A stretch of DNA of 64,000 nt, taken from the NCBI GenBank assembly GCA_036556025.1, contig DATBKD010000093.1, positions 1,828-65,827 on the forward strand. The letters are read 5' to 3'. The notes beneath the pieces are model-generated. The model did no database searches, was not told where the DNA came from, and saw nothing but the letters and a program-made list of their open reading frames with translations. The DNA is from Gemmatimonadales bacterium (GTDB taxonomy: Bacteria > Gemmatimonadota > Gemmatimonadetes > Gemmatimonadales > GWC2-71-9). Numbering within the stretch: position 1 is the first letter of the stretch; every line of letters begins with the position of its first letter. A program made the position numbers and the translations under genes. Positions 43,717 to 64,000 of this stretch are shown here, in pieces.

Positions 43717-44388
43717 ATGAGGACTATGCGAAATTCGATTCTGGGGTACATCGCGCTGCCGTTGCTCGTCGGAGTGACCGGGGTTTCGGCCCAGAGCCCG
43801 AGCACGACCACCCGACCGCCGGAGCAGACGGTGCTCTCGCCCGGAGACACCCTCCGGATTACCGTCTGGCGCAAGCCCGAATTCAGTGGCGAGTTCGTGA
43901 TCGGCGCGGATGGGACCTTGATCCACCCCCTGTTTCGGGCGGTTCGGGTCGCGGGAGTGCCCCTGGCCACTGCCGAAGCGAATATCCGCAATTTCCTGTT
44001 GCAGTACGATCAGAACCCGCAGTTCGTGATCGAGCCTCTCCTTCGAATCGCCGTGTCCGGAGAAGTGCCTAAACCGTCGGTCTTCGCGGTGCAACCCCGA
44101 ACCACCATAGCCGAAGCCATTGCCCGGGCCGGTGGCACTACCCAGAACGGCAATCGAAAAAAGGTGCGGGTTATCCGCTCGGAATCGGGGAGCGAGCAGC
44201 GGGTGTTCCTCGCCAACCTGCAGGACCCGGCGGACCCCATCGCATCGTCGATCGTTCGGTCCGGCGACCAGGTCGTCGTTGATCGCCGGAGGTCGTTTTT
44301 CAGGGATATTCTGATCCCCACGTTTACCGTCATCGGGTCGATCGCCTCGATCGGACTCCTCATTGATCGTATCCAGCGCAACAACTGA
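43717..44388 (+). CDS. Polysaccharide export protein (Wza-like; Poly_export + SLBB)
   Basis: Signal peptide, then LSPGDTLRITVWRKPEFSGEFVIGADGTLIHPLF (Poly_export motif) and SLBB-like GEVPKPSVFAV. Possible starts are TTG 43714, ATG 43717 and ATG 43726. Confidence 0.85.
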   Translation: MRTMRNSILGYIALPLLVGVTGVSAQSPSTTTRPPEQTVLSPGDTLRITVWRKPEFSGEFVIGADGTLIHPLFRAVRVAGVPLATAEANIRNFLLQYDQNPQFVIEPLLRIAVSGEVPKPSVFAVQPRTTIAEAIARAGGTTQNGNRKKVRVIRSESGSEQRVFLANLQDPADPIASSIVRSGDQVVVDRRRSFFRDILIPTFTVIGSIASIGLLIDRIQRNN

Positions 44389-44398
44389 GCAGCCTGTC

Positions 44399-46840
44399 AT
44401 GAGCCACTATCCTCCAGACCAACGCTTGCTCCCTGGCTCGGTGACTCCACCTCCGAGTCCTGAGCGAGTCCAGGTAGACACCATCTCTCTGAGCCATTTG
44501 TTCGGCACCCTCCGGCGGAGATGGCGAGCGGTCCTGGGGATGACGGTCGTCGGTGCGGCCTTGGGTGCCTTTCTGGCCTCCAAGGATCCCCCGAGCTACC
44601 AGGCCAAGGCGGTCATTCGCTTCGCCGGGGAGCGGCGCCAGCTGACGAGCGACATGGAGCACCCGCAGCCCGAAGTGAGCCGCACCACGGACCCGATTCT
44701 CTCGCTGGTGCAGCTGGTCACCAGCCGGAGCGTCATGGGGGCAGTGGTCGATTCGCTCGGGCTCCAACTGGTGTCATCCACCCCCGAGTTTCCAACCGGC
44801 ATGCTCAGCAACATCCATGTGGACCCGCGCCTCGGCAGCGACTCGGTCAGACTGGACTTTTCGCCTGAGCAAGTGAAGGCCCAATTCGGCGGCCGGCAGG
44901 CCAGCGCCCGCTATGGGGAAGTGCTCTCGCTCGGAACGGTGCAGTTCGCGGTCACCTCCTATCCCGACATCGCCGAGGCCATGCTGAGCGTGATCCCGCG
45001 GGAGATGGCGATCGATGCCCTGCGCGCCAATGTGATCGTTGGGGCGCGGAGCGGCACCGACGTCATCGACGTCCTGTACACTTCCAACTCTCCCCGGCTG
45101 GCCCAGCAGGTCGTGAACAACACGGTGAAGTCGTTCCAGGAGCTCAATATCCAATCGGCTCGAGAGAAGTCGCAGCGCCGGCGGGAGTTTCTGGAGCAGC
45201 AGTTTACCCGAACCGACAGCATGTTGAGTCAGGCCCAGGCCGAGCTGGCGGCCTTCCGGAGCCGGCAGCAGATCGCCAGCACCAGCAGCAAGCTGGACGC
45301 GCAGCAGGCCGCGCTTTTGGCCCTCGACTCTCGTCGCGCGGAAATCGAGGCCGACCGAAACACCTTCGGCACCTTGCTGCGTCAGCTGAAAAACGGCAGC
45401 GATACCGGCAAGGAAGAGGCGCTGCGTGCGCTGGCCACTTCGCCCGCGCTGGGTGATAACGCCGCTGTGGGCTCGCTGTTTCAGAAGCTGACTGCCTATC
45501 AATTCCGGCTGGATTCGATGACAACGGGGCAGTGGGCCGCTGCGCCGACCAATCCCGACGTGCTGCAGCTTCGCTCGCTGATCAAGCAGACCCAGGACCA
45601 ACTGTCCTCCGCGGTGAGCAGCCACGTCGCGACGCTGGATGCCCGCATCGCTGCCCTGGGAACACTGAGCGCCAAGACCGGCCAGTCGATGCAGGTCCTG
45701 CCGGCCATGGCCGAGGAGGAGGCCCGCCTCAATCAGCGAGTGCAGGCGCTGAGCAACGTTGGCGACCAGCTGCGCCAGGACTACCAGAAGGCGCGGATGG
45801 CCGAAGCGGTCGAGGCCGGGGACGTCGACGTGGTGGACTATGCCGACCTTCCCTACACACCGATTCTGGCGGCCGCATCCATCAAGTTCGGGATCGGCGT
45901 GATTCTCGGCTTGCTGCTCGGCGGCGGACTCGCCTTCCTGTTGGAAGCGCTCAATACCTCCATTCGCCGCCCCGAAGATCTGGAGAGTGCGTTGCACCTG
46001 CCCGGTCTCGCTGTCATCCCCAGGCTCACGGCTGGCTCGCCGGCGCCGAGGCGGCGTCTGCCCGGACTGAAGGGCGGCAAGCATGTCGAGCTACCTCGTT
46101 CGGAGGCGATCGGCACCGTGGCCCAGCCCTTCTCCATCGGGACCGAGGCCTTCCGGATGCTTCGTACCAGTCTGATCTGGTCCGATGGCGCGGAGCAGCT
46201 CAAGACGCTGGTGGTCACCAGCGCGGCTCCTGGCGAGGGCAAGACGCTCACCGCGGCCAATCTGGCGGCGAGCTTTGCCCACGATGGGCTGCACACGCTC
46301 CTCGTGGATTGTGACGTCAGGCGGCCCAAGCTCCATGGGCTCTTCCGGGTTCCGCGTACGCCCGGGCTGCTCGATCTTCTGGCTCCTCCCAGTCCATCGG
46401 CTGACGGCCGGGTGCACTCATTGAGCTTCACGGGGGAGGACGGAGGGGACACGCTGGAGCATGTGATTCGGGACACGCCGATTCGGGGGCTCTCGCTGCT
46501 CACCTGCGGAGCCCTGCCAACCAATGCGTCCAACCTGCTGAGTGGCGTCCGGATGCGTTCGCTGCTCCAGGAGCTCACCAAGCGCTTCGATCTGGTCATC
46601 CTGGACACCCCGCCGGTCCTGGCCACCGCGGACGCGGGGATCCTGGGCAGTCTGGCCGACGGCGTGCTCCTGGTGGTCCGGGCCGGTCAGACGGATCGCT
46701 CTGCGGCGCAGCGCGCCTATCAGCAGCTGGCCAACGTCGGCTCGCGGGTGATGGGCGCTGTGCTCAACGATCCCAAGGGTGAGGTATCCCAGTACGGCGA
46801 CTACTACTATCCCTACGAATACGTCGCCGAGAAGGAATGA
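44399..46840 (+). CDS. Polysaccharide co-polymerase / tyrosine autokinase (Wzc/GumC/EpsB-type)
   Basis: ATG 44399. Wzz-type N-terminal TM plus a long periplasmic coiled region. Cytoplasmic CpsD-like P-loop VVTSAAPGEGKT. C-terminal Tyr cluster YGDYYYPYEYV. Confidence 0.9.
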   Translation: MSHYPPDQRLLPGSVTPPPSPERVQVDTISLSHLFGTLRRRWRAVLGMTVVGAALGAFLASKDPPSYQAKAVIRFAGERRQLTSDMEHPQPEVSRTTDPILSLVQLVTSRSVMGAVVDSLGLQLVSSTPEFPTGMLSNIHVDPRLGSDSVRLDFSPEQVKAQFGGRQASARYGEVLSLGTVQFAVTSYPDIAEAMLSVIPREMAIDALRANVIVGARSGTDVIDVLYTSNSPRLAQQVVNNTVKSFQELNIQSAREKSQRRREFLEQQFTRTDSMLSQAQAELAAFRSRQQIASTSSKLDAQQAALLALDSRRAEIEADRNTFGTLLRQLKNGSDTGKEEALRALATSPALGDNAAVGSLFQKLTAYQFRLDSMTTGQWAAAPTNPDVLQLRSLIKQTQDQLSSAVSSHVATLDARIAALGTLSAKTGQSMQVLPAMAEEEARLNQRVQALSNVGDQLRQDYQKARMAEAVEAGDVDVVDYADLPYTPILAAASIKFGIGVILGLLLGGGLAFLLEALNTSIRRPEDLESALHLPGLAVIPRLTAGSPAPRRRLPGLKGGKHVELPRSEAIGTVAQPFSIGTEAFRMLRTSLIWSDGAEQLKTLVVTSAAPGEGKTLTAANLAASFAHDGLHTLLVDCDVRRPKLHGLFRVPRTPGLLDLLAPPSPSADGRVHSLSFTGEDGGDTLEHVIRDTPIRGLSLLTCGALPTNASNLLSGVRMRSLLQELTKRFDLVILDTPPVLATADAGILGSLADGVLLVVRAGQTDRSAAQRAYQQLANVGSRVMGAVLNDPKGEVSQYGDYYYPYEYVAEKE

Positions 46841-47032
46841 ACGTCCTGCCAGGCAGGCGGTCGCGAGGCCACTCGTAGCCCGCCTGCCAGCCCAGCCGGT
46901 TGGTACACTCCACTTCGCAGCCTGGATCGCACCCAATCTTCGGCCGGTTGCTGCCCGGCTTGGTCAAGGCTACACTGCGGCACGATTGCCGCCGGACGCT
47001 GCTGAGCGCTCACGGAGGATTGTCACACCTGC

Positions 47033-48868
47033 ATGTCGGCTTCTACCGTAACTTTCGATCCGCTGGTCGCTGCGCCCGCCGGGCCGCAGCGAATGAACAT
47101 CGTGATCGTCGGCCACGTCGACCACGGCAAGAGCACCGTGATCGGCCGCCTGCTGGCCGATACCCACTCTCTTCCCGAGGGGAAGCTGGAGCAGGTTCGG
47201 GCGCAGTGCGAGCTCAACTCCAAGCCATTTGAGTACGCGTTCCTGCTCGACGCCCTCAAGGACGAGCAGGCGCAAGGCATCACCATCGATGCTGCCCGGG
47301 TGTTCTTCAAGAGTCGGCTGCGGCCCTACCTGATCCTGGATGCTCCGGGCCACATCGAGTTTCTGAAGAACATGATCACCGGCGCGGCGCGGGCCGAGGC
47401 CGCTCTGCTGGTGATCGATGCCGCTGAGGGGGTCCAGGAAAACTCCCGGCGCCACGGCTATATGGTCTCGCTCCTCGGGGTGAAGCAGCTCGCCGTGGTG
47501 GTCAACAAGATGGATCTGGTCGGCTGGGATCGCGCCGTCTACGACCGCATCGTCCGGGAATACGGCGCCTTCCTCGATCAGGTCGGGATCCGGCCAGCCA
47601 GCTTCATTCCGGTATCCGGACGGAGTGGTGACAACATCGCCGAGCGCTCGGCCAATCTTCCCTGGTATCAGGGCCCCACCGTCCTCGATGCGCTCGATGC
47701 CTTTCGCAGCGAGCCCGCCCCGGTCAAGCGGCCATTCAGGATGCCGGTCCAGGATGTCTACAAGTTCACCAAGCAGGGGGATGACCGGCGGATCGTGGCC
47801 GGCACCATCGACTCCGGTGCGGTGAGCGTAGGCGATACCGTGATCTTCTATCCCTCGGGCAAGAAGAGCCGGGTGAAAAGCATCGAGGCGTTCAATCGGC
47901 CGATCCAGGCCCGCGCCGAGGCCGGCTCCGCCGTGGGGTTCACGCTCCAGGAGCAGATCTACATCACTCGCGGCGAGATGGCGACCGTGGAGCACGAGCC
48001 CCGCCCCCAGGTAACCACCCGGCTCCGGGTGAGCCTCTTCTGGCTGGGGAAGGAGCCGCTGGTGAAGCGGAAGGAGTATCTCCTCAAGCTGGGAACCGCC
48101 CGGGTCACGGTTCGGGTGGAGGACGTGCTCCGCGTCATGGATGCTTCCACCCTCGGCGCGACCGAGCAGGGGAGCGCGGTGCAGCGCCATGATGTGGCCG
48201 AATGCGTGCTCAAGCTGGATCGCGCCATCGCCTGTGACCTGGCCGAAGACGTGCCGGCCACCAGCAGGTTCGTGCTGGTGGACGATTTCGAGATCCGAGG
48301 CGGCGGCATCGTCCGGGAAGCCTTGCCCGACCGACAGGCTGCGATGCGGGACCGGGTGCTGCTGCGGAACTACAAGTGGGAGCCCAGCATCATTCAGCCC
48401 GAGCACCGGGCGGAGAAATACAATCAGAAGGCCGCGCTGATTCTGGTCACCGGGGAGCACGAGGCCGATCGGAAAGGCGTTGCCAAGGCGCTCGAGCGCA
48501 AGCTGTTCGAAGACGGCAAAGTGGTCTACTTCCTGGGCATCGGCAGCGTGCTCTACGGGGTGGATGCCGATATCGAGCGGAAGCCGGAAAATCGGCTGGA
48601 GCACATGCGCCGCCTGGCCGAGATCGCCAACCTGATGCTCGACGCCGGCATCATTCTCGTGGTTGCGGCGGCTGAGCTTACCCAGGAAGACCTCGAGGTC
48701 ATCAAGACCGCGGTTCAGCCGGATTGGATCGAGACCATCTGGGCCGGCGATACCATCACCACCGATCTCCCCATCGACCTTCAGCTCCCCGGTGGCGCCG
48801 TGCCGGAGGCGGTGGATCGCCTCAAGGCGCATCTCCAGGACAAGGGGATCATCTTCCGCCCATGGTAG
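47033..48868 (+). CDS. cysN: Sulfate adenylyltransferase subunit 1 (CysN-type GTPase) fused to a P-loop-less APS-kinase-like domain
   Basis: GTPase motifs [14 protein letters not shown] and NKMD. The C-terminal 170 aa align to APS kinase, but the P-loop reads [12 protein letters not shown] instead of TGLSGSGKS, and LDGD reads LGIG. Confidence 0.85.
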
Positions 48869-49620
48869 GCGCCGAGCTCCGGTCGGCGGTTATTGGTTTG
48901 GCGCGCGAGGCGGGGCGTGCCACCATGGCCTACTATGGCGAATCTGCTCCCCAGATCCGGGAAAAGAGCGACCAGAGTCCGCTCACCCTGGCCGACGAGG
49001 CAGCTCACGGGATTCTGGTGCAGGGCCTCCGGCGGCTGGATCCCGCCACTCCGGTGGTTTCGGAGGAGGGCGACATTGCGCCGTTCGAGACCAGGCGCGA
49101 GTGGCGCCGGTTCTGGCTGGTGGATCCTCTCGACGGAACCAAAGAGTTCATCAAGCGCCGGGCGGAGTTCACCGTCAACGTGGCGTTGATCGAGAATGGC
49201 GAGCCGGTCTTCGGGGTGGTGCTGGCACCGGCCCTCGATCTGCTGTATTGGGCCGTGAAGGGGGGAGGCGCCTGGCGCGAAGAGAAGGCCGGTCCCGCTG
49301 AGCGGATCTACTCCAGCACCCCGGCCCCGGGGACACCGCTCACGGTGGTGGAGAGCCTATCTCATCCCTCGCCCGAGCTGGAGGAGTACCTCCGTACCAT
49401 TCCGGTGGCCCTGCGGGTCAAGGCCGGCAGCTCCCTCAAGTTCTGCTGGGTCGCGGAAGGCCGCGCGGACATCTATCCCCGCCTGGGCCCCACCATGGAA
49501 TGGGACGTCGCCGCGGGCGACTGCGTCTACCGTCAATCGGGGCGGAATGGTGAGCGTCCGTCTCCTCTCACGTACAACAAGCCGGATCTGCGCAACGCCA
49601 ACTTCGTGATCGGCCTGTGA
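48862..49620 (+). CDS. cysQ: 3'(2'),5'-bisphosphate nucleotidase (PAP phosphatase)
   Basis: ATG 48862 overlaps the cysN stop (ATGGTAG). Inositol-monophosphatase-fold motifs [17 protein letters not shown] and WDVAAG. Confidence 0.85.
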
Positions 49621-50168
49621 GTGCCGGTCCCGTGCAGGACGCGAGAACCGGGCGGCCCGCGCCGGTGTTATGGTTCACTGGGCTGTCCGGCTCGGGGAAG
49701 AGCACCATCGCCGTCCGGGTGCAGGACGAGCTGGCGCGCCGGGGAGTCGAGGTCGAGTACATCGATGGAGATGCGCTGCGGGAGGTATTTCCTAATACCG
49801 GCTTCACCCGCGCAGAACGGGAGGAGCACCTGCGCCGCACCGGCTACATGGCGAGTCGGCTCGCGGCCCATGGAGTGACCGTCGTGGCCTCGTTGGTCTC
49901 GCCCTACCGGGAGTCGCGGGAGTTCGTCCGAACGCTCTGTCCCAGCTTCATGGAGATCTACGTGGCGACTCCGCTGGAAGAATGCGAGCGGCGAGATGTG
50001 AAGGGCCTCTACGCCCGAGCTCGCCGGGGTGAAATTCGACACTTCACCGGCATCGACGACCCCTACGAGCCACCCGAGCACCCGGAGCTGGCCTTCGATA
50101 CCCGTGATCTGAGCGTGGACGAGTGCGTGGCGAAAGTGCTCGCGCGGGTTGCTGGCACTCACCTTTGA
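49617..50168 (+). CDS. cysC: Adenylyl-sulfate (APS) kinase
   Basis: GTG 49617 overlaps the cysQ stop (GTGA). Intact P-loop [15 protein letters not shown], plus IDGDALR and RDVKGLY. Confidence 0.9.
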
Positions 50169-51061
50169 TGGCAGGCGAGATGGATCACCTCGATCAACTG
50201 GAGCACCGGAGCGTTCATATTCTCCGGGAAGCGTACGCCAATTTCAAGAACCTGGGGATGCTCTGGTCCATCGGGAAGGACAGCACCGTTCTCCTGTGGC
50301 TGGCCCGGAAAGCCTTCTTTGGCCATGTGCCCATCCCTCTCATTCATATCGATACCTCGTTCAAGATTCCCGAGATGATCGCCTACCGGGACCGTTTGGC
50401 ACTGGAATGGAACCTGACCATGATCTACGGTCAGAACCGGCACGCGCTGGAGGGGAAGCGCACGTATCCCGACGGGGCAATCGATCGCATCGCCTGCTGC
50501 AAGGCGCTCAAGACCGACGCCCTGAAGTACACCTTGAGCGGGGAATGGCCCCGCTATCGGCTGAACCACGCCAAGAAGGTCTACGAAGTCGACCGCAACA
50601 CCGAGCCGTTCACCGGAATCATCGTTGGGGTCCGGGCCGACGAAGAGGGCAGCCGCTCGAAGGAGCGCTACTTCTCCCCCCGGACGACCCAGTCTCATTG
50701 GGACGTGGGCGACCAGCCACCCGAGTTCTGGAACCAGTTCAAGACCGAGTTCGCCCCGGGAACCCATCTACGGATTCATCCGCTGCTCGATTGGACCGAG
50801 CTCAATATCTGGGAATACATCCGTCGGGAGCAGATCCCTACGGTCTCGCTCTACTACAATCAGGGCGACGGGAAGCGGTACCGCTCCCTGGGTTGCTATC
50901 CCTGCACCCAGCCGGTCGAGTCCGACGCCCGCAACGTCGACGAGATCATCGCGGAGCTGCAATCGGGGAAGTTCGCCAACGTCGCCGAGCGGTCAGGTCG
51001 GGCGCAGGACAAGGCGGGTGGGGGCGGACTGGAGGTCCTTCGGCGGGACGGCTACATGTGA
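50168..51061 (+). CDS. cysD: Sulfate adenylyltransferase subunit 2
   Basis: ATG 50168 shares 1 nt with the cysC stop (TGATG). [32 protein letters not shown] (PP-loop) and RSLGCYPCT. Confidence 0.95.
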
Positions 51062-51082
51062 GACCGTGAAGCGTTTCGCGCT

Positions 51083-52006: not shown

Positions 52007-52145
52007 GGTTTGGTCGGCGCAGAAGCAATCCGCCGGTCTCTGTCTCCCTGAAGCATATTGCGTGCACGTCCGGCCCGCCCCGCCATCGGACTGTCCGGGA
52101 AGCCAATATTGGTTCTGTAAGGGAATAGCGGACAAGCCCTTGCGG

Positions 52146-53210: not shown

Positions 53211-53254
53211 TGTATCACCACGCTATCATTCTGGCACATTCACCCGTGAAGCTC

Positions 53255-53701: not shown

Positions 53702-53731
53702 GCTCCAGGCCGCCCTCTGAGCAGGAAAGTT

Positions 53732-56290: not shown

Positions 56291-56318
56291 CTCCGGCTGC
56301 CGGTCCCCCCACGAAGGG

Positions 56319-57152
56319 ATGGCGATGCGGCCCACGTCACGAAGCGTGCTCCCCGGTTTCGGACTCTCGCTTGGGGTCACCTGCACCTATCTGAGCCTCA
56401 TGGTGCTGCTCCCCCTCGCGACCCTGTTCGCGCGGACCGCCGAGCTGCCCTGGCCCACCTTCTGGGCCACGGTCACCAGCCCCCGGGTGGTTGCTTCGTA
56501 TCGGGTGACCTTTGGCGCTTCCCTGGTCGCGGCGCTGGTCAATACGGTGTTTGGCCTGCTGGTGGCCTGGGTCTTGGTGCGCTACCGATTTCCCGGCCGC
56601 CGGTTGGTGGATGCGATGGTGGATCTCCCCTTCGCGCTGCCGACGGCAGTCGCCGGCATTGCCCTCACGACCCTGTACGCCTCGAACGGCTGGATCGGGA
56701 GCCGCCTCGGCCCGCTCGGCATCACGGTGTCCTACACCTGGCTGGGCATCACGGTCGCGTTGACCTTCATTGGGCTGCCGTTCGTGGTGCGAACGGTGCA
56801 GCCGGTGCTGGATGATCTCGAGGCCGAGGTGGAAGAAGCGGCGGCGAGCCTGGGTGCCGGGCGGTGGCAGATTGTTGCCCGGGTCGTGTTTCCCACGATA
56901 GGACCGGCGCTGCTCACCGGATTTGCGCTGGCCTTTGCCAGAGCGGTGGGGGAGTACGGCTCGGTGGTGTTCATCTCGGGCAACTTGCCGATGAAGACCG
57001 AGATCGTGCCCCTGCTCATCATCACCAAGCTGGAGCAATACGACTACGCGGGCGCTACCGCGGTGGCGCTGGTGATGCTGATTGTATCGTTCGGACTCCT
57101 GCTGGCCGTCAATCTGCTTCAGTGGGCGGCCCGTCGCCGCCCGGCGGTCTGA
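56319..57152 (+). CDS. cysT: Sulfate ABC transporter permease CysT
   Basis: ATG 56319 (GAAGGG RBS). [14 protein letters not shown]-terminus and [16 protein letters not shown] loop, typical of CysT. Confidence 0.9.
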
Positions 57153-57155
57153 GCG

Positions 57156-58070
57156 ATGGCGACGCTGGCCCTCTCCCGATCGGCTAGGGTTGCGCCGAGA
57201 ACCATTACCAGGGCGACCGGCGAATCGCGGGCAGTACGCTGGACGCTGATTGTCATCGCGTTGGCCTTCCTGACGCTGACCTTGTTCCTGCCGCTTGCGT
57301 TGGTGTTCACCCAGGCGCTCGCGAAGGGGATGCCCGCCTATCTGAGCGCCATCCGGGACGCCGATGCGCTGAGCGCTGCCAAGCTCACGTTGCTCATCGC
57401 GTCGATCGCGATTCCGGTCAACCTGATCTTCGGGCTGGCCGCGGCCTGGTGTATCTCGAAGTTCACCTTCCCGGGCAAGAACCTGCTCATCACCCTGATC
57501 GATCTGCCCTTCGCGGTCTCCCCGGTGATCTCGGGGATGATCTTCGTGCTCCTCCTGGGGGCCCACAGCTGGTTCGGCTCGTGGCTGCAGGACCACGACA
57601 TCAAGATCATCTTCGCGGTGCCTGGCATGGTGCTCGCCACCCTCTTCGTGACCGCTCCGTTCATCGCCCGGGAGCTGATTCCGCTCATGCAGGAGCAGGG
57701 GACCGAGGAGGAAGAAGCGGCCATCGTGCTGGCCGCTGGCGGTTGGCAGACCTTCTGGCGGGTCACGCTCCCCAACATCAGGTGGGGACTGCTCTACGGG
57801 CTCATTCTCTGCAACGCTCGGGCGATGGGTGAGTTCGGAGCCGTCTCCGTGGTCTCCGGACACATCCGCGGGGTCACCAACACCCTGCCGCTCCACGTGG
57901 AGATTCTCTACAACGAATACGCCTTCGCCGCCAGCTTTGCCGTGGCCTCGGTGCTCACGCTGCTCGCGCTGGTCACCCTGGGACTCAAGGCACTGGTGGA
58001 ATGGCAGCAGCGGCGGGTCACGGCGGATCTCGCCGAAGTGGACCGCGGGCCCGAAAGGACGGCGGCATGA
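57156..58070 (+). CDS. cysW: Sulfate ABC transporter permease CysW
   Basis: 304 aa. [34 protein letters not shown] loop. Follows cysT by 3 nt. Confidence 0.9.
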
Positions 58071-59131
58071 GCATCGAGGTCCGCAACCTGCGCAAGACCT
58101 TCGGCGACTTTGTCGCCCTCGACAACGTCAGTCTGCAGGTAGCTGGAGGAGAGCTGGTGGCCCTGCTCGGCCCATCCGGTTCGGGCAAGACCACGCTGCT
58201 GCGGATTATCGCGGGGCTGGAGCCAGCAGATCAGGGCACCATCCATTTCCACGGGGAGGACGCTACCGGCCGGCCCGTCCGCGAGCGGCAGGTCGGCTTC
58301 GTGTTCCAGCATTACGCCTTGTTCCGGCACATGACCGTCTTCGAGAACATAGCCTTTGGCCTGCGGGTCCGGCCGCGAGCAGTGCGTCCATCAGCGGCCG
58401 AAATCCGGGAAACCGTGATGGGGCTTCTGCGCCTGGTGCAACTGGACGTTCTCGCCACGCGGCGGCCTTCGGAGCTGTCCGGGGGACAGCGCCAGCGGGT
58501 GGCGCTCGCGCGGGCACTCGCGGTGAAACCCAAGGTCCTCCTGCTGGATGAGCCCTTCGGCGCGCTGGATGCCAAGGTGCGGAAGGAGCTCCGGCGTTGG
58601 CTCCGACGGCTCCACGAAGAGGTTCACGTCACCAGTGTCTTCGTGACCCACGATCAGGAAGAGGCTCTGGAGGTCTCCGACCGGGTTGTGGTGATGAACC
58701 AGGGGCGGATCGAGCAAAGTGGCACACCAGAGGAGGTCTATGAACACCCGGCCACGCCGTTCGTCTACGGCTTTCTGGGAGACGTCAACCTCTTCCAGGG
58801 GCGCATCCACCAGGGTCGCGTGAGTATCGGAGAGGGTGAGCTGGACGCACCCGAGTGGGCCGGCACAACGGATCAAGCCGGCCTGGCATATGTCAGGACA
58901 TACGACGTCGAGCTCGCCGCATCGCCCTCGGGCTCCGCTTCCATGGAAGCGGTGGTCCGACACGTTCGGGCGTTTGGGCCGTTAGTCCGGCTGGAGCTGG
59001 ATCTCATCCAGAGTGGACGCACCATCGACGCTCACATTCCCCGGGCTCGGTTCGACGCTCTGGCCACTGGGAAAGGTCAACGGGTCTATGTGTCGCCGAC
59101 AAACATGCGCGTGTTTGTGGAGCCTGGGTAA
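58067..59131 (+). CDS. cysA: Sulfate ABC transporter ATP-binding protein CysA
   Basis: ATG 58067 overlaps the cysW stop (ATGA). [38 protein letters not shown] and a C-terminal TOBE-like domain. Confidence 0.95.
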
Positions 59132-59144
59132 CGCTATCGAGCCG

Positions 59145-59990
59145 ATGATTGCGTCCCGCGTGGCGCAGTGGCTATCATCGGAGGTCACCGGCGCAGGAGA
59201 CCCGCCATTGGTCGTCAAGCGGCAGGCTACGGAGCAGCTCTCGCTCGAGGATGCGCTGGCAAAGCTGCCGCGGTCGGAGGAATACGCCAGGAAGATTCTC
59301 GCCCGCCTGCAATCGATCCGACCGCTCCCGCCAGATTCCACCACCGTCGTCGACATCGGAGCGGCTCAGGGAAGGTTTGTGATCGGGTGTGCCAGATTGG
59401 GCTACCGGGCGATCGGAATCGAGCCTTGGGCAGCGGCCCGTGAAGCGGCGGACGAGTTGATTGCCTTGTCAGGGATCGACGCCAAGGTTCTGCCGGGTAC
59501 GGCGGAGTCGACCGGTCTGGCGAGCGAACAATTCGACGTGGTGACTTGCGGTGCGGTGATCGAGCACGTGAAAGACGCCCAGGCGGCTTTCGACGAGGCG
59601 TTCCGTATTCTCAAGCCGGGCGGGATCTTCTGGTTCTGCGCGGCAAGCAGCCGCTCCCCGCGCCAGCATGAGATCGACGGCTTCCCCCTGTTCGGCTGGT
59701 ACCCGGATGGGTTAAAGCGCCGGATCATGGAGTGGACCCGGGTGAACAAACCCCACCTCGTCGGGTACACGGACGCTCCCGCCATCAACTGGTTTACGCC
59801 TGGCAAGGCGCGCCGCATGCTGCGCCGAGCCGGCTTCCGCAATCACGTCTACGATCGATGGGATCTGCGGCAGCCGTCGGAAGGCGGCTCCCGCTATCGT
59901 GCCGCTTTGCGCGTCATCAAGCTGGGAGCGCCTTTCAAGCTGTTGGCTGACGTGGCCCTTCCGGGCTGTGCCTACGCCACTCTGAAGTGA
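59145..59990 (+). CDS. Class I SAM-dependent methyltransferase
   Basis: ATG 59145. Motif I VVDIGAAQGRF and post-I/II FDVVTCGAVIEHV...LKPGGIFWF. Confidence 0.8.
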   Translation: MIASRVAQWLSSEVTGAGDPPLVVKRQATEQLSLEDALAKLPRSEEYARKILARLQSIRPLPPDSTTVVDIGAAQGRFVIGCARLGYRAIGIEPWAAAREAADELIALSGIDAKVLPGTAESTGLASEQFDVVTCGAVIEHVKDAQAAFDEAFRILKPGGIFWFCAASSRSPRQHEIDGFPLFGWYPDGLKRRIMEWTRVNKPHLVGYTDAPAINWFTPGKARRMLRRAGFRNHVYDRWDLRQPSEGGSRYRAALRVIKLGAPFKLLADVALPGCAYATLK

Positions 59991-60224
59991 GGCTCGCGGG
60001 CCGAGCCGGTGCGGCCCCACCGCTGGATTGCCTTCCTGCCACACATCCCTGCAGATCTCGACGCTCGGAGCTGCCGGCATCCTGACTGTGCCCGCGAAAC
60101 GCATTGCAGTACATTCCCTTAGCAATCTTGCCCCGGCCGGAGGTCTCTCCCAAACCGGGGCATGGTTTCTGCGCCTGGCGGTCGGTTCGCGCCGACCCAG
60201 CAATGCCTCATCGACCACCTGGCG

Positions 60225-61403
60225 ATGCGTCAGAGGCCTAACCGAAGGGACGATCCACTGGATACGAACGGCCCAACCGCTTCTGCCAAGACCCAGATCA
60301 GCCGGGGGCCCGTCGCCTTCTTTCTGCCGACGCTGACCGGAGGGGGAGCCCAGCGGATCGCACTCAATCTCGCCCAAGGATTCGTGGACTCGGGTGTAGC
60401 TACCGACCTGGTGGCGGTGAACGGAGTTGGTGAGCTGGCGGAACGGGTCCCCATGGGCGTGAGGATGGTGGACCTCAAACGGTCCCGCGTGATCCTGGGG
60501 TTGCCGCCCCTGGTTGCCTATCTCCGGCGGGAGCGGCCCACCACCCTGATCTCCTTCCTGGACCATGCGGGCGTTATCGCGCTGTGGGCCCGGCGGTTGA
60601 GCGGCACATCGACCAGGGTGGTTTGCACGGTGCATAACGCTCTGACCCGGGCTGCGCCGACGTCATCCAATCTGCGCAGCCGAATCATGCCGCTGTTCCT
60701 TCGCGCCTTCTATCCCTCGGCGGACGAGGTAGTAGCGGTATCTCACGGCGTCGCTCAGGAGCTGAGTAAGGCCACCGGATTTCCGCTGGCCCGTATCCGG
60801 GTGATTTACAACCCGGTGATCACGGGCGACCTGCTGGCGGCGCGGGATCGGGCCCCGGCGCACCCGTGGCTCACCGATAGCGGCCCCCCTGTGATACTGG
60901 GCGCGGGACGTCTGACCCGGCAGAAGGACTTCCAAGGTCTCATCCGCGCTTTCGCCCTGGTACGCCAGCGCCGCCCGGCACGGTTGCTGATCATGGGCGA
61001 GGGACCGGAGCGTCCCGCCCTGGAAGCCCTGGTTCGCGAATTGGGCCTCCAGGCGGAGGTGTCGCTGCCGGGATTTGTGGTCGGCGCCCACGAGTGCATG
61101 GCCAAGGCTGCGGTTTTTGTACTCTCATCGGTGTGGGAAGGCTTGCCCACGGTGTTGATCGAGGCGCTCGCCGTCGGAACCCGGGTGGTCTCGACCGACT
61201 GTCCCAGCGGGCCGCGCGAGATTCTCCGAGGCGGGCAGCTCGGTCGCCTGGTGCCCGTCGGCGACGTCGGGGCATTGGCGGAGGGTATCCTGGCCGCGCT
61301 CGGCGATGCGGGTCGGTATGTGCCTCTCGACCAGCTCAAGGAATTCACCCAAGAGGTCGCGGTTCAGTCCTACCTCGACCTGACACGGAACGGAAGCGGC
61401 TGA
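60225..61403 (+). CDS. Glycosyltransferase family 4
   Basis: ATG 60225. VAFFLPTLTGGGAQRIALNLA N-terminus and C-terminal EGLPTVLIEALAVGTRVVSTD. Confidence 0.85.
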   Translation: MRQRPNRRDDPLDTNGPTASAKTQISRGPVAFFLPTLTGGGAQRIALNLAQGFVDSGVATDLVAVNGVGELAERVPMGVRMVDLKRSRVILGLPPLVAYLRRERPTTLISFLDHAGVIALWARRLSGTSTRVVCTVHNALTRAAPTSSNLRSRIMPLFLRAFYPSADEVVAVSHGVAQELSKATGFPLARIRVIYNPVITGDLLAARDRAPAHPWLTDSGPPVILGAGRLTRQKDFQGLIRAFALVRQRRPARLLIMGEGPERPALEALVRELGLQAEVSLPGFVVGAHECMAKAAVFVLSSVWEGLPTVLIEALAVGTRVVSTDCPSGPREILRGGQLGRLVPVGDVGALAEGILAALGDAGRYVPLDQLKEFTQEVAVQSYLDLTRNGSG

Positions 61404-61404
61404 C

Positions 61405-62655
61405 GTGGTCGCGTACATCTTCTTTTGGGTCTTCGTCTTCGTCATCCCGTGGGAGAACGTCGTCGTCTTCTCGGGCCTGGGGACCATCAGCAAGCTGGTT
61501 GGCATCGCCGCGTTCGGGGTGACTGCAGCGCGGGTGCTGCTGACCACCAAGGTGCGGCGGCTGGACTCGTTTCATTGGATCGGGTTCGCCTATTTGTGCT
61601 GGGTGCTGCTCTCGGCGTCATGGGCCGTCAATACCTCCTGCAGTCCGGTGTTCGGTTGCCCCGTTCGCAATGTCATCGACCAGTATCTTCAGTTCTTCGT
61701 CATGTTGTGGGTTCTCTGGGAGGTCACTCCCACTCGCTCCCGGCTGATCAATCTCCTGCAAGCCTACGTGCTCGGCGGCTATGTGGCCGCGAGCATCACG
61801 GTCTACAACTACGCCATTGGAGCATCCCTCAAGCATGCCTATGGCCGCTATGCCGCGGAGGGCTTCGACCCGAACGATCTGGGTATGGTCCTCGGCCTCG
61901 GCTTGCCCATGGCGTGGTATCTCGGCTCCATCGCAACCAACGGGGTCCAGCGGTGGCTCAACCGAGGGTACTTTCTCGTCGGCACGGTGGCCATCCTTCT
62001 GACCGGTTCTCGGGGTGCGCTCCTGGCCTCGATCGTCGCGCTGTCGGTGATTCCCTGGACCTTGACCCAAGTGCGTCGTGGGGTGCGAGTCGCGGCTGTC
62101 GTGATCATGTTCGGCGCTGCGGTGCTGGCGGCGAAGTTCGTACCGGAAGAACTGTTCAAACGACTGTCCACCACGACCTCGGAGATCTCCGAGGGCACGA
62201 TGAATGACCGGCTCCAGATCTGGAAGGCAGGCATCGAAGCAGTGCCGGCTCGCCCACTCCAGGGCTATGGACCTGGAGGATGGCAGATGGCCTTGACCCA
62301 CGAGCTAGGGTTCAAAGGCCCCCACAATACCTATCTCGCGATTCTGGTCGACGAGGGAATGATTGGCCTGCTCCTGTTTCTGATGCTGTTCGTAATCATC
62401 TATAACCGCATGCGACTGATTCCCAACATCTTCGAGCGACGAGTGGGGCTGACGATCTTATGGACCTTCATTGTCGCCATCACACCATTGGCGTGGGACA
62501 CCAGAAAGGCGGGATGGCTTATCCTGGGTCTTCTGATCTCCTACGCGGAGGTGCTCCGGCCACTCCGGCAGACCGCGCCCGCTCCGGCCCCGGTGGGGCT
62601 CCGCCCTGTGGTTCGCCCCCGACGCCCGGTCCCCTTTATCCGCCGGCCCCTCTAG
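61405..62655 (+). CDS. O-antigen ligase/polymerase family membrane protein (Wzy_C-type EPS polymerase candidate)
   Basis: GTG start. About 10 predicted TM helices, LLTGSRGALLA motif and a large loop with HNTYL, as in Wzy/WaaL/ExoQ-type proteins. Confidence 0.75.
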   Translation: MVAYIFFWVFVFVIPWENVVVFSGLGTISKLVGIAAFGVTAARVLLTTKVRRLDSFHWIGFAYLCWVLLSASWAVNTSCSPVFGCPVRNVIDQYLQFFVMLWVLWEVTPTRSRLINLLQAYVLGGYVAASITVYNYAIGASLKHAYGRYAAEGFDPNDLGMVLGLGLPMAWYLGSIATNGVQRWLNRGYFLVGTVAILLTGSRGALLASIVALSVIPWTLTQVRRGVRVAAVVIMFGAAVLAAKFVPEELFKRLSTTTSEISEGTMNDRLQIWKAGIEAVPARPLQGYGPGGWQMALTHELGFKGPHNTYLAILVDEGMIGLLLFLMLFVIIYNRMRLIPNIFERRVGLTILWTFIVAITPLAWDTRKAGWLILGLLISYAEVLRPLRQTAPAPAPVGLRPVVRPRRPVPFIRRPL

Positions 62656-63504
62656 GTGAGCGCGGCGCGAGCCGGATCCGGAAGCAGTCCCCGGGTCAGC
62701 GTCATCACCACGGTGTACAACGGTGAGCCATACGCCGACCGGGCCATCCCGGATATTCTGGCGCAGAGCTTCGAAGATTTCGAATTCATCCTCATCGACG
62801 ACGGCTCGCAGGACCGCACCCTCGAGATCCTGAACGAGGTCGCGAGGCGCGATTCCCGTGTGCGGGTGCTGACTCCAGGACGGGTGGGTTTTGCCGCAGC
62901 CCTCAACTACGGCATCGCGCGGGCCCGGGGCGAGTACATCGCGCGCCAGGACTTCGACGACCGCAGCTATCCGGATCGGTTGCGACGCCAGGTGGCGTTG
63001 CTGGACCAGCAGCCCGGGGTCGGCGTGGTAGGGACCTATTACCTGTTGGTCGATGAGCACCGGGGCGAGCGGTACGTGCGGATGCCGCCGACCGACCATC
63101 GCGAGATTCTTCTGGCGATGGCGAGATACATCCCCATCGCCCACACCATGGTGACCTTTCGTCGCCAGAGTTGGGTCGATGCCGGCGGGTATCCTGAGGT
63201 CAACAACCTCGTGGACCTGAGGTTCTGGTTGCAGGTAGCCAAGAAGGGATGGCGCTTTGCCAATGTCCCGGAGGTGTTGGGAGAGCATTTCGTCCACCAG
63301 ACCAGCTTCTTCCATCAGGCGTTCCGCTACGCCCAACGCCAGCGGGATCTGGCCAACGCCCAGGCCCAGATCATTCGAGAGCTGAATCTGCCGAGGTGGA
63401 TGTATGCCTACACGGCCGGGCGATACCTCTACGCCTACTGTCCCACTCCGGTGAAGCGAGTGCTGCGCCGCACCCTCGGCGGATCGCGGGAGCGCGATCT
63501 ATGA
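62656..63504 (+). CDS. Glycosyltransferase family 2
   Basis: VSVITTVYNGEPYADRAIPDILAQSFEDFEFILIDDGSQDRT and QDFDDRS (DxD) are GT2 hallmarks. The GTG start abuts the previous stop. Confidence 0.9.
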   Translation: MSAARAGSGSSPRVSVITTVYNGEPYADRAIPDILAQSFEDFEFILIDDGSQDRTLEILNEVARRDSRVRVLTPGRVGFAAALNYGIARARGEYIARQDFDDRSYPDRLRRQVALLDQQPGVGVVGTYYLLVDEHRGERYVRMPPTDHREILLAMARYIPIAHTMVTFRRQSWVDAGGYPEVNNLVDLRFWLQVAKKGWRFANVPEVLGEHFVHQTSFFHQAFRYAQRQRDLANAQAQIIRELNLPRWMYAYTAGRYLYAYCPTPVKRVLRRTLGGSRERDL

Positions 63505-64000
63505 AGGTCCTGTTCCTTTCCACCAGCATGGGAATGGGCGGGGCCGACAAGCAGCTCCTCACTGCCGCGGAGGAGATGCGCAACCGGGGCTACCAGGTCC
63601 TGATCGTCTCGCTCACTCCATTGGGTCCGATGGGACTGGAAGCGCGCGGCCTCGGCATCCCGACCGAGTCGCTGGAAATGCGGCGGGGCGTGGCGGATCC
63701 ACGAGGGCTCGTGCGACTGATCCGGCTGGTCCGGCGGTGGAGGCCGGACATTCTCCACAGTCACATGGTGCACGCAAACCTCATGGCGAGGGCACTCCGT
63801 CTCTTCGCGAGGGTGCCGGTCATGGTATCCACCATCCACAGCATCTCCGACGGCGGCCGCCTGCGAATGACGGCCTATCGGTTGACCAATGGTCTGGTGG
63901 ACCATATGACCATCGTCAGCGAGGCTGCCGCGGACCGCTTCATCAACGAGGGCATCGTCCCTCGGGAGCTTCTGACAGTCATTCCCAATGGCATCGATAT
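63501..64000 (+). CDS. Glycosyltransferase family 4, 5' part (runs off the window end)
   Basis: ATG 63501 overlaps the GT2 stop (ATGA). MKVLFLSTSMGMGGADKQLL...DILHSHMVHANL is a GT4 N-terminal domain. Open to nt 64000. Confidence 0.8.
   Translation, partial: MKVLFLSTSMGMGGADKQLLTAAEEMRNRGYQVLIVSLTPLGPMGLEARGLGIPTESLEMRRGVADPRGLVRLIRLVRRWRPDILHSHMVHANLMARALRLFARVPVMVSTIHSISDGGRLRMTAYRLTNGLVDHMTIVSEAAADRFINEGIVPRELLTVIPNGID

Follow-up and report, generated by a model that had tools for sequence, protein, structure and literature searches.

A conserved Gemmatimonadales gene locus that probably directs the synthesis of a sulfated extracellular polysaccharide

In rhizobia and Xanthomonas, dedicated CysD/CysN(C) paralogs (NodP/NodQ with NodH or LpsS, and RaxP/RaxQ with RaxST, respectively) supply PAPS to one particular sulfotransferase rather than to cysteine synthesis. 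Sulfate is transferred there to a lipo-chitooligosaccharide, LPS or a peptide instead of a Wzy-made exopolysaccharide (EPS), and to our knowledge importer, porin and cysQ genes do not lie in the same block. The xss cluster of Synechocystis sp. PCC 6803 is carried on a megaplasmid. This cyanobacterial cluster directs Wzx/Wzy-dependent synthesis of the sulfated EPS synechan, an experimentally verified product, with sulfotransferase genes lying among those for glycosyltransferases, polymerase and export; no sulfate supply genes are reported, and PAPS, cysN, sulfate adenylyltransferase and sulfate transport are absent from the main text (PMC8205485). Capsule clusters with embedded cys and sulfotransferase genes have been published for Cobetia marina KMM 1449 (PMC11766843) and Vibrio sp. 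KMM 8419 (PMC11641403). Their products are chemically proven to be sulfated, and the authors treat PAPS genes together with sulfotransferase genes in a polysaccharide cluster as a hallmark of sulfated polysaccharide synthesis.

Here we describe a comparable gene arrangement in a 64-kb stretch of Gemmatimonadales DNA (the window), in which about 55 ORFs from across the whole stretch were scanned for protein domains and the genes of the locus were assigned mainly with Pfam and NCBIfam profiles (Table 1). Every gene named in an earlier note on this DNA was recovered at or near its proposed position; the PAPS-type sulfotransferase gene was also confirmed, although its strand had to be corrected to minus, opposite cysD. 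The inventory supports one functional neighborhood of polysaccharide assembly, PAPS synthesis, PAP removal and a carbohydrate-type sulfotransferase, to which, in this lineage, the sulfate ABC importer and porin also belong. We consider it likely that the region is a Wzx/Wzy-dependent exopolysaccharide or capsule locus, typical of its order, with a built-in sulfation module, and that its product is a sulfated extracellular polysaccharide.

Table 1. Genes of the locus and its left flank, with window positions and the main evidence for each assignment.
Feature	Position	Strand	Evidence or remark
Stand-alone response-regulator receiver protein	37441-37863	-	Pfam Response_reg 9e-17; left edge, locus membership uncertain
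Lipoprotein paralog A, Big_2 repeats and C-terminal domain of ~250 aa	38193-39788	+	Pfam Big_2
GT4 glycosyltransferase	39828-40985	-	Pfam Glycos_transf_1, Glyco_transf_4
Lipoprotein paralog B, Big_2-like repeats and C-terminal domain	41372-43315	+	Homolog adjoins Wza in L006
Wza-type short outer-membrane polysaccharide export protein	43726-44388	+	Pfam Poly_export 2.3e-14 and SLBB
Wzc-type polysaccharide co-polymerase with tyrosine autokinase domain	44399-46840	+	Pfam Wzz, GNVR, P-loop; TIGR01007 159 bits vs cutoff 108
CysN, ATP sulfurylase GTPase subunit	47033-48868	+	TIGR02034 339.7 vs cutoff 336.1
CysQ, 3'(2'),5'-bisphosphate nucleotidase (PAP phosphatase)	48862-49620	+	TIGR01331 equivalog 269.6 vs 228.8
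CysC, APS kinase, intact [10 protein letters not shown]-loop	49617-50168	+	Pfam APS_kinase 1.5e-53; TIGR00455 190 vs 138.7
CysD, small subunit of ATP sulfurylase	50168-51061	+	NF003587 341 bits vs 195
PAPS-dependent carbohydrate-type sulfotransferase	51083-52006	-	Pfam Sulfotransfer_1 3.8e-18, Sulfotransfer_3
CE4/ArnD-like putative deacetylase	52146-53180	-	AlphaFold pLDDT 86; Foldseek E 7e-10 to 1e-8
Rrf2-family regulator, four-cysteine cluster	53255-53701	+	Pfam Rrf2 1.7e-37
OprO/P-family porin	53851/53983-55230	+	Pfam Porin_O_P 9.3e-32
Sbp/CysP sulfate-binding periplasmic protein	55262-56290	+	NF008022 542 bits vs 288; TIGR00971 497 vs 155.5
CysT, sulfate ABC transporter permease	56346-57152	+	TIGR02139 equivalog 422.7 vs 246.1
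CysW, sulfate ABC transporter permease	57156-58070	+	TIGR02140 equivalog 403.6 vs 329.1
CysA, sulfate ABC transporter ATPase	58067-59131	+	TIGR00968 388 vs 342.75; CysA_C_terminal, TOBE_3
SAM-dependent methyltransferase	59208-59990	+	Pfam Methyltransf_11, _23, _25
GT4 glycosyltransferase	60162-61403	+	Pfam; orthologs 53-82% identical in all relatives
Wzy_C-domain membrane protein	61405-62655	+	Pfam Wzy_C 2.3e-21
GT2 glycosyltransferase	62656-63504	+	Pfam Glycos_transf_2 2.5e-30
GT4 glycosyltransferase, N-terminal part, cut by window end	63501-64000	+	Pfam Glyco_transf_4

Comparison with relatives (contigs or genomes labeled L002, L004, L006, L008, L009, L010, L012 and L022 to L026) bore out the synteny that the earlier note had proposed to examine. 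The order Wza-Wzc-cysNQCD-sulfotransferase(s)-GT4-Wzy-GT2-GT4 is found in at least ten other Gemmatimonadales genomes; it is kept in full in L002, L006, L008, L009, L010, L012, L023 and L024, and in part in L004, L022 and L025. Because the same order recurs in independent genomes of different species, the clustering is not due to chance; the locus is real and conserved across this order of soil and water bacteria. Wzc and cysN are adjacent wherever the junction is visible (nine of nine loci), and in every relative cysD is followed directly by sulfotransferase genes, up to four in number; many relatives have four, and in several a Wzx gene is interleaved with them between cysD and the glycosyltransferases. 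In each of the five further contigs examined that encode the sulfate importer, the Rrf2-porin-sbp-cysTWA block is part of the locus. CysD (89-96% identity) and CysN (86-93%) are highly conserved across species, whereas Wzc is 55-69% identical in most relatives, reaching 93% only in the closest, L024, and Wzy is mostly 36-42% identical, with 67% in L024.

The overlaps of stop and start codons described earlier for cysN, cysQ, cysC and cysD are real (ATGGTAG, where the cysQ start overlaps the cysN stop, then GTGA, and TGATG at cysC/cysD), and judged from these junctions the four genes are translationally coupled. CysN ends in a degenerate APS-kinase-like domain (approximately residues 446-611; 44.7 against 138.7 for the apsK model). 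This domain has other residues in place of the P-loop and the DGD motif and has lost the lid, yet it is highly conserved in nine genomes. This dead domain is probably a scaffold or a regulatory domain that senses PAPS or APS. The ATP sulfurylase of the fungus Penicillium chrysogenum likewise has an inactive C-terminal APS-kinase-like domain, which is allosteric, and there too PAPS comes from a second, active APS kinase. In the fungus the fusion partner is a homo-oligomeric sulfurylase of the Sat type, whereas the domain described here sits on the CysN GTPase and also lacks the lid segment.

The sulfotransferase gene is convergent with cysD, with a hairpin between the two. Its product has the bacterial protein 3RNL as its best PDB sequence match, followed by heparan sulfate 3-O-sulfotransferases and NDST, and the residues conserved across 28 homologs are Lys20 (nearly invariant) and Thr23/Thr24 (invariant) in the PSB loop PKCGTT, the invariant catalytic Glu43 of KEPHFF, the invariant Arg108 of RNP in the 3'-PB motif, and Ser116 (nearly invariant). 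Animal NDST and 3-O-sulfotransferases have in common with it the PKxGTT loop, the catalytic Glu of EPHFF and the RxPxxRxxS motif, although the NDST sulfotransferase domain is only distantly similar in sequence (E 3e-6). Immediately upstream on the same strand lies the putative deacetylase gene, whose product had no match in Pfam or NCBIfam; its model matches ArnD and CE4 polysaccharide deacetylases, with ArnD, 3RXZ, HP0310 and WbmS as the top Foldseek matches. The modeled fold is of the CE4/ArnD type, and the metal and catalytic motifs are conserved; DTEGD, HxH and residue H287 are invariant. The gene pair also occurs in one close relative, and a deacetylase homolog adjoins a Wza/Wzy cluster in another genome. 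In NDST deacetylase and sulfotransferase are parts of one protein, whereas here they are separate and most relatives have the orthologous sulfotransferase without a deacetylase gene; to read the pair as an N-sulfation system is speculative.

The Rrf2 gene, for which the start was chosen by alignment to 148-aa orthologs, is divergent from the deacetylase/sulfotransferase pair and in relatives always precedes the porin and importer. Its best NCBIfam matches, both weak, are CymR and IscR, and the regulator probably ties the pair and the importer to sulfur or Fe-S status. The porin is 80% identical to 457-aa orthologs from position 53857 onward, signal peptide included; the conserved start at 53851 is ATA where relatives have ATG, and GGGGAG lies 8 nt upstream. 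ATA is a rare but permitted start codon in translation table 11.

On the assembly side, the Wza-like protein resembles the EpsE and PEP-CTERM export models of NCBIfam only weakly, and Wzc has a Walker A motif (GEGKT) and a C-terminal tyrosine cluster (YGDYYYPYEY). The methyltransferase is probably a sugar O-methyltransferase; its homologs keep their position relative to the first GT4 in L022 and L024, and in L004 and L025 a methyltransferase gene is found at another place of the locus, in the opposite orientation. The Wzy_C protein is most likely the repeat-unit polymerase, although it could be a ligase or oligosaccharyltransferase. Neither a Wzx flippase nor a priming glycosyltransferase is encoded inside the window. 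Contig L026, which is 100% identical over window positions 59118-64000, continues beyond the window end with a GT4 (391 aa) and, on the minus strand, a PMT-like GT-C (520 aa) and a Polysacc_synt protein that corresponds to Wzx (528 aa), approximately 3 kb past the end. To the left of Wza, the two lipoprotein paralogs share 28% identity over 514 aa, and a low-confidence model only hints at a GH-A-like TIM barrel for the C-terminal domain of paralog A. An ortholog of the GT4 between them adjoins Wza in L008, and housekeeping genes (SbcCD, GNAT) lie further left of the response regulator.

The annotations give the sulfate route directly. Sulfate is imported by Sbp-CysTWA behind the OprO/P-type porin, CysD and CysN form APS, and the separate CysC produces PAPS; the soluble heparan-sulfate-type sulfotransferase consumes PAPS, and CysQ hydrolyzes the by-product PAP. 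For the polymer, a route can be proposed. GT4 and GT2 enzymes would build the repeat unit. Neither signal peptides nor membrane spans are present in the sulfotransferase, deacetylase and methyltransferase, which are therefore placed in the cytoplasm, where they may act on the undecaprenyl-diphosphate-linked unit; this would then be flipped by Wzx and polymerized by Wzy, with Wzc and Wza controlling chain length and export. We infer a heteropolysaccharide product that bears sulfate and is probably methylated and partly de-N-acetylated; we found no literature report of a sulfate-bearing polymer from any Gemmatimonadota. The earlier proposal that every step from sulfate entry to polysaccharide sulfation is encoded here is too strong, given that no priming phosphoglycosyltransferase was found, Wzx lies outside the window and the porin start is ATA.

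Ordinary assimilation would explain the sulfur genes differently: cysNQCD, Rrf2, the porin and sbp-cysTWA would be the only general sulfate uptake and activation genes of the cell, feeding cysH/sir elsewhere, with the EPS neighborhood an inherited gene order and the sulfotransferase tapping a general PAPS pool. The identity of CysD and CysN, far above that of Wzc and Wzy, is in line with this, since with conservation like that of housekeeping enzymes their position may be a matter of general sulfur metabolism; the importer scores at equivalog level as an ordinary SulT system, and the regulator is a generic Rrf2. We regard this account as improbable. Against it stand the coupling of cysC and cysQ inside the cysN...cysD operon, although APS-reductase-type assimilation needs neither, the Wzc-cysN adjacency and the sulfotransferases behind cysD in the relatives. 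Assembly GCA_000695095.2, which we take to be that of the complete Gemmatimonas phototrophica genome, appears in a published survey table of 47 freshwater Gemmatimonadota genomes. It is among the seven of nine cysD-positive genomes without cysH or sir, which also speaks against assimilation, whereas the sole genome with cysPUW, which also has cysD, cysNC, cysH and sir, favors it. The ORFs scanned across the window gave no hit to a PAPS/APS reductase or sulfite reductase domain. The absence of sulfite-forming genes from the window does not establish the earlier suggestion of cys genes reserved for sulfation, since a 64-kb stretch tells little of what the genome encodes elsewhere and CysD/CysN are conserved like housekeeping enzymes; exclusive use in sulfation and dual use that includes cysteine synthesis appear about equally likely. 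The assimilation account leaves room for dual use, and a sulfated glycan could be made under it as well.

Less probable again is a sulfated glycoconjugate in place of secreted EPS. If the Wzy_C protein were a WaaL- or PglL-type ligase or O-oligosaccharyltransferase and the PMT-like GT-C a periplasmic glycosyltransferase, the acceptor could be LPS (lipid A-core, giving an O-antigen) or protein. The sole NCBIfam matches of the Wzy_C protein, all sub-threshold, are indeed to "O-glycosylation ligase, exosortase A-associated" and the TfpM oligosaccharyltransferase, the gene after the last GT4 in L002, L004, L022, L024 and L026 encodes a GT-C enzyme of the PMT/PMT_2 family, and sulfated LPS is known in rhizobia (LpsS). 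However, Wza (OPX) together with a Wzc that has the full tyrosine-kinase tail is the signature of a high-molecular-weight polysaccharide that is exported, a Wzy_C domain is present in ExoQ-type EPS polymerases too, and no WaaL- or OTase-specific NCBIfam model reaches its cutoff. We think it very unlikely that the sulfation module is decaying and partly defunct, with three of four sulfotransferases and a DUF2292 gene lost and the porin start mutated. The window does hold one sulfotransferase where many relatives have four (tblastn with the other three and the Wzx of L002 found no further copy in it), DUF2292 is absent from it, GC content drops to 0.61 between 50 and 54 kb, and the porin starts with ATA. 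Against decay, all ORFs are intact with coding-type GC3, the porin retains its Shine-Dalgarno sequence and a permissible start, and the one-sulfotransferase architecture recurs in L024, in L022 (82-94% protein identity) and in other metagenome samples; in L022 and L024 a second sulfotransferase follows the PMT gene. A sulfated extracellular polysaccharide stays our preferred reading.

The view that so integrated a locus would be unusual proved overstated. The C. marina capsule cluster likewise has its own cysN/cysC, cysD, cysQ, sulfate transporter and sulfotransferase beside glycosyltransferase and export genes, and follows the same logic of import, activation, transfer and PAP removal (PMC11766843). 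It differs in using an ABC-transporter (Kps, group III) capsule pathway where the locus has Wzx/Wzy with Wza/Wzc, a SulP-type permease in place of sbp-cysTWA and a porin, and a fused bifunctional CysN-CysC in place of a CysN with a dead kinase-like domain and a separate CysC; C. marina is a gammaproteobacterium whose product structure is chemically proven (PMC11766843). The Vibrio cluster shares cysC, cysN, cysD and sulfotransferases (several in Vibrio), but its cys genes are explicitly second copies beside a housekeeping set and its export is of the Kps type; the available text reports no cysQ or importer there (PMC11641403). With synechan biosynthesis the locus shares the Wzx/Wzy-dependent route. 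Since marine bacteria have already provided comparable gene arrangements, the locus is a further example and not a new principle, and within Gemmatimonadales the arrangement is the rule.

Pfam and NCBIfam scans recovered all of the genes named in an earlier note on this DNA, which had described 43717-64000 as an exopolysaccharide (EPS) locus with its own sulfate supply chain. The window has a G+C content of ~65%, and its proteins find their closest homologs in metagenome-assembled genomes of Gemmatimonadales. The Wza-type exporter is short (220 aa) and resembles EpsE/PEP-CTERM-type exporters, and Wzc features a GEGKT Walker A motif and a C-terminal tyrosine cluster (YGDYYYPYEY). The candidate Wzy polymerase was assigned by a Wzy_C domain, which is common to ligases and oligosaccharyltransferases, and its NCBIfam matches are all sub-threshold. 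No Wzx flippase was found inside the window, and an exact search of metagenome contigs with a 50-mer from the window end gave no match. Exact-protein look-up of the GT2 provided a downstream extension, L026, a Logan contig that is 100% identical to window 59118-64000 and reaches 4.1 kb beyond the window end. This contig encodes the remainder of the second GT4, a PMT-like GT-C enzyme and, ~3 kb past the window end, a Wzx flippase (Polysacc_synt, 528 aa), which would complete the Wzx/Wzy set. No Bac_transf or Glycos_transf_4 family match was obtained in the scanned window ORFs, L026 or the 20-kb loci of relatives; a priming phosphoglycosyltransferase of the WbaP or WecA type may be encoded elsewhere in the genome.

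Features of the locus in window coordinates, with the domain or model match on which each assignment is based
Feature	Position	Strand	Match or remark
Wza-type exporter (OPX)	43726-44388		Poly_export + SLBB
Wzc, PCP-2a co-polymerase and tyrosine autokinase	44399-46840		Wzz, GNVR, P-loop; TIGR01007 above cutoff
CysN	47033-48868		TIGR02034 above cutoff
CysQ, PAP phosphatase	48862-49620		TIGR01331 equivalog, 269.6 vs cutoff 228.8
CysC, APS kinase	49617-50168		P-loop and lid intact
CysD	50168-51061		NF003587 above cutoff
Sulfotransferase	51083-52006	-	Sulfotransfer_1
344-aa deacetylase-like protein	52146-53180	-	same strand as sulfotransferase, upstream
Rrf2 regulator	53255-53701		
Porin_O_P porin	to 55230		Porin_O_P barrel domain; candidate OprO/OprP-type anion-selective porin
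Sbp, CysT, CysW, CysA (SulT sulfate/thiosulfate ABC importer)	55262-59131		all four above NCBIfam subfamily or equivalog cutoffs
SAM methyltransferase	59208-59990		
GT4, Wzy_C, GT2, start of second GT4	60162-64000		

The locus probably starts upstream of Wza, near 37.4 kb. Genes for a receiver protein, two paralogous Big_2 lipoproteins and one GT4 lie between this point and Wza, and housekeeping genes (SbcCD, GcvP, peptide ABC transport and flagellar-regulator-like genes) lie to the left of it. The latter side also holds, at 3907-8568, a sigma-54 activator with a receiver domain, a receiver-HD-GYP-like protein, a ParA/MinD-type ATPase and a sigma-70 family factor (regions 2, 3 and 4), which together resemble an FlhG/FliA-type motility regulatory block with no relation to the sulfation locus. 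Both Big_2 lipoproteins (38193-39788 and 41372-43315) begin MTYTFKL.RRLA.SR, carry a lipobox-like AAC and Big_2 repeats, and share a C-terminal domain of ~250 aa with a conserved DEP motif, for which a Pfam search gave no match even at E 10. An AlphaFold model of this domain built from two sequences has a pLDDT of 50, and Foldseek with this low-confidence model returned weak hints of a GH5/GH-A TIM barrel (best E 7.5e-3, TM 0.33); on this modeling the lipoproteins could be EPS-processing glycanases. G+C falls to 0.61-0.62 at 50001-54000 (sulfotransferase/deacetylase/Rrf2) and 40001-42000 (upstream GT4/Big_2), compared to ~0.65 elsewhere, which fits these segments being variable, exchanged parts of the locus.

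The sulfate activation genes are tightly packed, and the overlaps described in the earlier note between the starts of cysQ, cysC and cysD and the stops of the preceding genes were found as ATGGTAG, GTGA and TGATG. A gap of 193 bp (46841-47032) separates wzc from cysN, and a GC-rich inverted repeat (CTGCCAGGCAGGCGG...CCGCCTGCC) sits directly 3' of the wzc stop, which indicates that cysNQCD probably has its own promoter. CysN (611 aa) features a C-terminal domain (window 48338-48868) whose match to the 184-position APS kinase model covers just positions 1-112 and scores 44.7 bits against a cutoff of 138.7. In an alignment with CysC, the P-loop GLSGSGKST is replaced by GEHEADRKG and the DGD motif by GIGS, and ~41 lid residues are absent. 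Because of the loss of the P-loop, DGD motif and lid, the reading of this domain as an active kinase that makes CysC redundant was rejected. The domain is nearly identical among nine Gemmatimonadales genomes, and CysN is therefore predicted to carry a conserved, catalytically dead APS-kinase-like domain, which would explain the presence of a separate cysC. Fungal ATP sulfurylase has an allosteric APS-kinase-like domain, and by analogy our best guess is that the CysN domain could have a regulatory or scaffolding role.

The sulfotransferase gene converges with cysD across a hairpin (GTGAAGCG-TTTC-GCGCTTCAC), and its product has neither a signal peptide nor a membrane span. Over 6,000 homologs were found; the best 120 are 301-aa proteins with 69-83% identity, and the named ones among these are all Gemmatimonadales. 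A 418-aa ORF from 52339 that overlaps the sulfotransferase upstream was rejected as the true gene, as the homologs have 301 aa and the domain begins at residue 122. Among solved structures, the best sequence match is PDB 3RNL (annotated just as "Sulfotransferase", E 3e-34), followed by heparan sulfate 3-O-sulfotransferases and the sulfotransferase domain of the heparan sulfate N-deacetylase/N-sulfotransferase (NDST). The PKCGTT 5'-phosphosulfate loop (PSB loop), the glutamate of KEPHFF and the RNPxD..S 3'-phosphate motif are fully or almost fully conserved in 28 homologs, some of them distant and from other phyla. Both the PAPS-binding motifs and the putative catalytic base are kept in the window protein (PSB loop, Glu43, and Arg108 with Ser116). 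The KEPHFF glutamate aligns to the EPHFF stretch of 3-OST-3, which carries the catalytic base of that enzyme. Distant homologs in other phyla also occur in glycan contexts: three sulfotransferase genes adjoin a cysC homolog in a Chloroflexia MAG (L015, 5374-13209), and a homolog in a Gammaproteobacteria MAG (L013) has a Wza-like gene nearby.

Contigs of sulfotransferase homologs were retrieved and the window proteins mapped onto them, which revealed that the order of the block recurs in other Gemmatimonadales. The order Wza-Wzc-CysN-CysQ-CysC-CysD-sulfotransferase(s)-GT4-Wzy-GT2-GT4 was found in eight loci (L002, L006, L008, L009, L010, L012, L023 and L024) and was partly seen in L004, L022 and L025. 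In many relatives the interval between cysD and GT4 contains four sulfotransferase genes and a gene for a Wzx flippase, whereas the window retains one sulfotransferase only, the one transcribed against cysD. The loci of L002, L006, L008, L009, L010 and L012 lack the Rrf2-(DUF2292)-porin-sbp-cysTWA block. All five long contigs with a close homolog of the sulfate-binding protein (L004, L022, L023, L024 and L025) have the importer inside this locus; the association of importer and EPS locus is lineage-level and no coincidence of a single genome. Some relatives also have a sulfite-oxidase-like gene (Oxidored_molyb + Mo-co_dimer) within the locus (L002, 11883-12992; L025, 13847-14929), placed between cysD or cysA and the sulfotransferases. 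Between cysD and Rrf2, L025 further encodes a Polysacc_deac_1 deacetylase, an acyl carrier protein, an SDR, an AMP-binding enzyme, LuxE, LuxC and a methyltransferase (420-7753), a cassette suggesting that the same polymer carries a fatty-acyl or aldehyde-derived group.

The Rrf2 gene lies between the deacetylase/sulfotransferase pair and the importer, and its product has four clustered cysteines, as in cluster-binding Rrf2 regulators. This location and the cysteine cluster suggest that it probably couples the pair and the importer to sulfur or Fe-S status, and a search of 53100-53900 for an inverted-repeat operator gave none at the settings used. Every importer-bearing relative has a small DUF2292 gene between Rrf2 and the porin (L004, 2142-2351; L023, 8268-8483; L024, 8303-8512) that is missing from the window (53702-53850). 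Porin orthologs are 457-463 aa in length, with the initial residues MSAV... and then a signal peptide. In the window the same N-terminus and signal peptide are encoded in frame, but with ATA where the orthologs have ATG (53838-53860); a Shine-Dalgarno-type GGGGAG is kept 8 nt upstream of this ATA. The first canonical start, at 53983, would give a product that lacks the signal peptide, and the same truncated 415-aa porin gene call was made on an independent metagenome contig from this population. Either a rare ATA start is used or the protein is poorly made in this strain.

A pathway is proposed from these annotations in which Sbp-CysTWA takes up sulfate, CysDN forms APS, CysC converts this into PAPS, a carbohydrate-type sulfotransferase transfers the sulfate, and CysQ hydrolyzes the PAP. 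The three tailoring enzymes would be cytoplasmic and would decorate an undecaprenyl-diphosphate-linked repeat unit ahead of flipping by Wzx, after which Wzy would polymerize the units and Wzc and Wza would export the polymer. We consider it likely that the locus makes a sulfated glycan.

To the earlier note the cys genes also looked dedicated to sulfation, on the basis that the window has no sulfite-forming genes. This absence was borne out, with no CysH, Sir or CysIJ domain in the about 55 ORFs that cover the window, and none in L026 or the flanks of 12 related loci; a tblastn search of low sensitivity, with E. coli CysH as the query, gave no match in the window or in 21 loci. Exclusive use in sulfation and a dual role in which the cys genes also serve housekeeping sulfate assimilation are about equally likely. 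CysD and CysN are 86-96% identical across species, with Wzc mostly at 55-69% and Wzy mostly at 36-42% (the closest relative, L024, alone reaches 93% for Wzc and 67% for Wzy), and the importer is a standard SulT system, both of which point to a housekeeping function. Conversely, the operon includes cysC and cysQ as translationally coupled genes, and the sulfotransferases directly follow cysD in every genome, as would be expected of a sulfation role. One genome that bears on this is GCA_000695095.2, which we take to be the complete genome of Gemmatimonas phototrophica. Table S6 of PMC10581226 lists it as positive for cysD/cysNC/cysQ and negative for cysH/sir. Among 47 freshwater Gemmatimonadota genomes from the same table, nine have cysD and five have cysH and sir, and only two have both, which again favors sulfation, although the sole one of these 47 with cysPUW has cysH and sir as well. 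A complete assimilatory pathway is patchy in Gemmatimonadota according to PMC10581226 (18.9% of soil genomes). A further, milder possibility is that the lineage has no reductive sulfate assimilation at all, in which case the porin, importer and cysNQCD would exist only for polymer sulfation.

The 344-aa protein has no match in Pfam or NCBIfam, and a PDB sequence search gave noise only, although there are more than 4,500 homologs. A confident AlphaFold model (pLDDT 86, from 31 homologs) was matched best by Foldseek to ArnD, a putative mycobacterial polysaccharide deacetylase, Helicobacter HP0310, the O-antigen enzyme WbmS and other CE4 deacetylases (E 7e-10 to 1e-6, TM 0.5-0.65). DTEGD, HxH and a late histidine (His287) are invariant in the family, which would fit the CE4 metal and catalytic set. 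The structural matches and these motifs together uphold the label "deacetylase-like" at the level of the predicted CE4/ArnD-like fold, and the protein appears to belong to an undescribed deacetylase family linked to EPS loci. A homolog adjoins a Wza/Wzy cluster in an unrelated 3-Mb genome. The deacetylase and sulfotransferase genes (53180 to 51083, minus strand) could in principle encode a split bacterial NDST, in which a lipid-linked amino sugar would be de-N-acetylated and the resulting amine N-sulfated; if this is true, the exopolysaccharide of soil and freshwater Gemmatimonadales would be heparan-like and N-sulfated. The pair also occurs in one close relative, most relatives have the orthologous sulfotransferase without a deacetylase gene, and the sulfotransferase sequence does not separate N- from O-sulfation. 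We regard a split NDST as improbable.

Animals, algae, cyanobacteria and a few marine bacteria are the organisms usually named as sources of sulfated polysaccharides. Gemmatimonadales are a cosmopolitan, abundant group that has seldom been cultured. Granular sludge and anammox granules have been found to contain sulfated glycosaminoglycan-like polymers, whose producers are treated as not known in the discussion of PMC7356697. A conserved, sulfation-equipped EPS locus makes Gemmatimonadales a specific candidate for such production in soil, freshwater and wastewater, and we consider them probable producers of sulfated polymers. The sulfotransferases, the deacetylase family that lacks a Pfam model and the CysN with a putatively dead kinase domain offer testable targets.

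Literature searches on sulfotransferases, sulfated polysaccharides or exopolysaccharides in Gemmatimonadota gave no relevant result, so this lineage-wide locus appears to be undescribed. The principle of a polysaccharide locus with its own sulfate supply is already published for Cobetia and Vibrio capsules and is not changed here. In Cobetia marina KMM 1449, cysN/cysC, cysD and cysQ lie in the capsule cluster together with genes for a sulfate permease and a sulfotransferase, and NMR established the structure of the sulfated product (PMC11766843). The capsule cluster of Vibrio sp. KMM 8419 includes three sulfotransferases as well as second cysC, cysN and cysD copies, a combination of genes described in PMC11641403 as a hallmark of sulfated polysaccharide synthesis. 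In Synechocystis, the xss cluster combines Wzx/Wzy assembly with sulfotransferases, with no supply genes reported in the main text of PMC8205485. The earlier proposal of a sulfated EPS stands as likely; its description of the locus as unusual was overstated. The Gemmatimonadales locus has these components of a sulfation module of the Cobetia/Vibrio type: CysD with CysN, a separate CysC, CysQ and a sulfotransferase. It adds a Wzx/Wzy-type case linked to an ABC importer to the few bacterial clusters that can be used for engineering sulfated polysaccharides. In contrast to the known clusters, it comes from a different phylum, is built around Wzx/Wzy-Wza/Wzc assembly, replaces a SulP permease with an ABC importer, an outer-membrane porin and an Rrf2 regulator, splits activation between a CysN with a predicted dead kinase domain and a separate CysC, and includes a CE4-like deacetylase.
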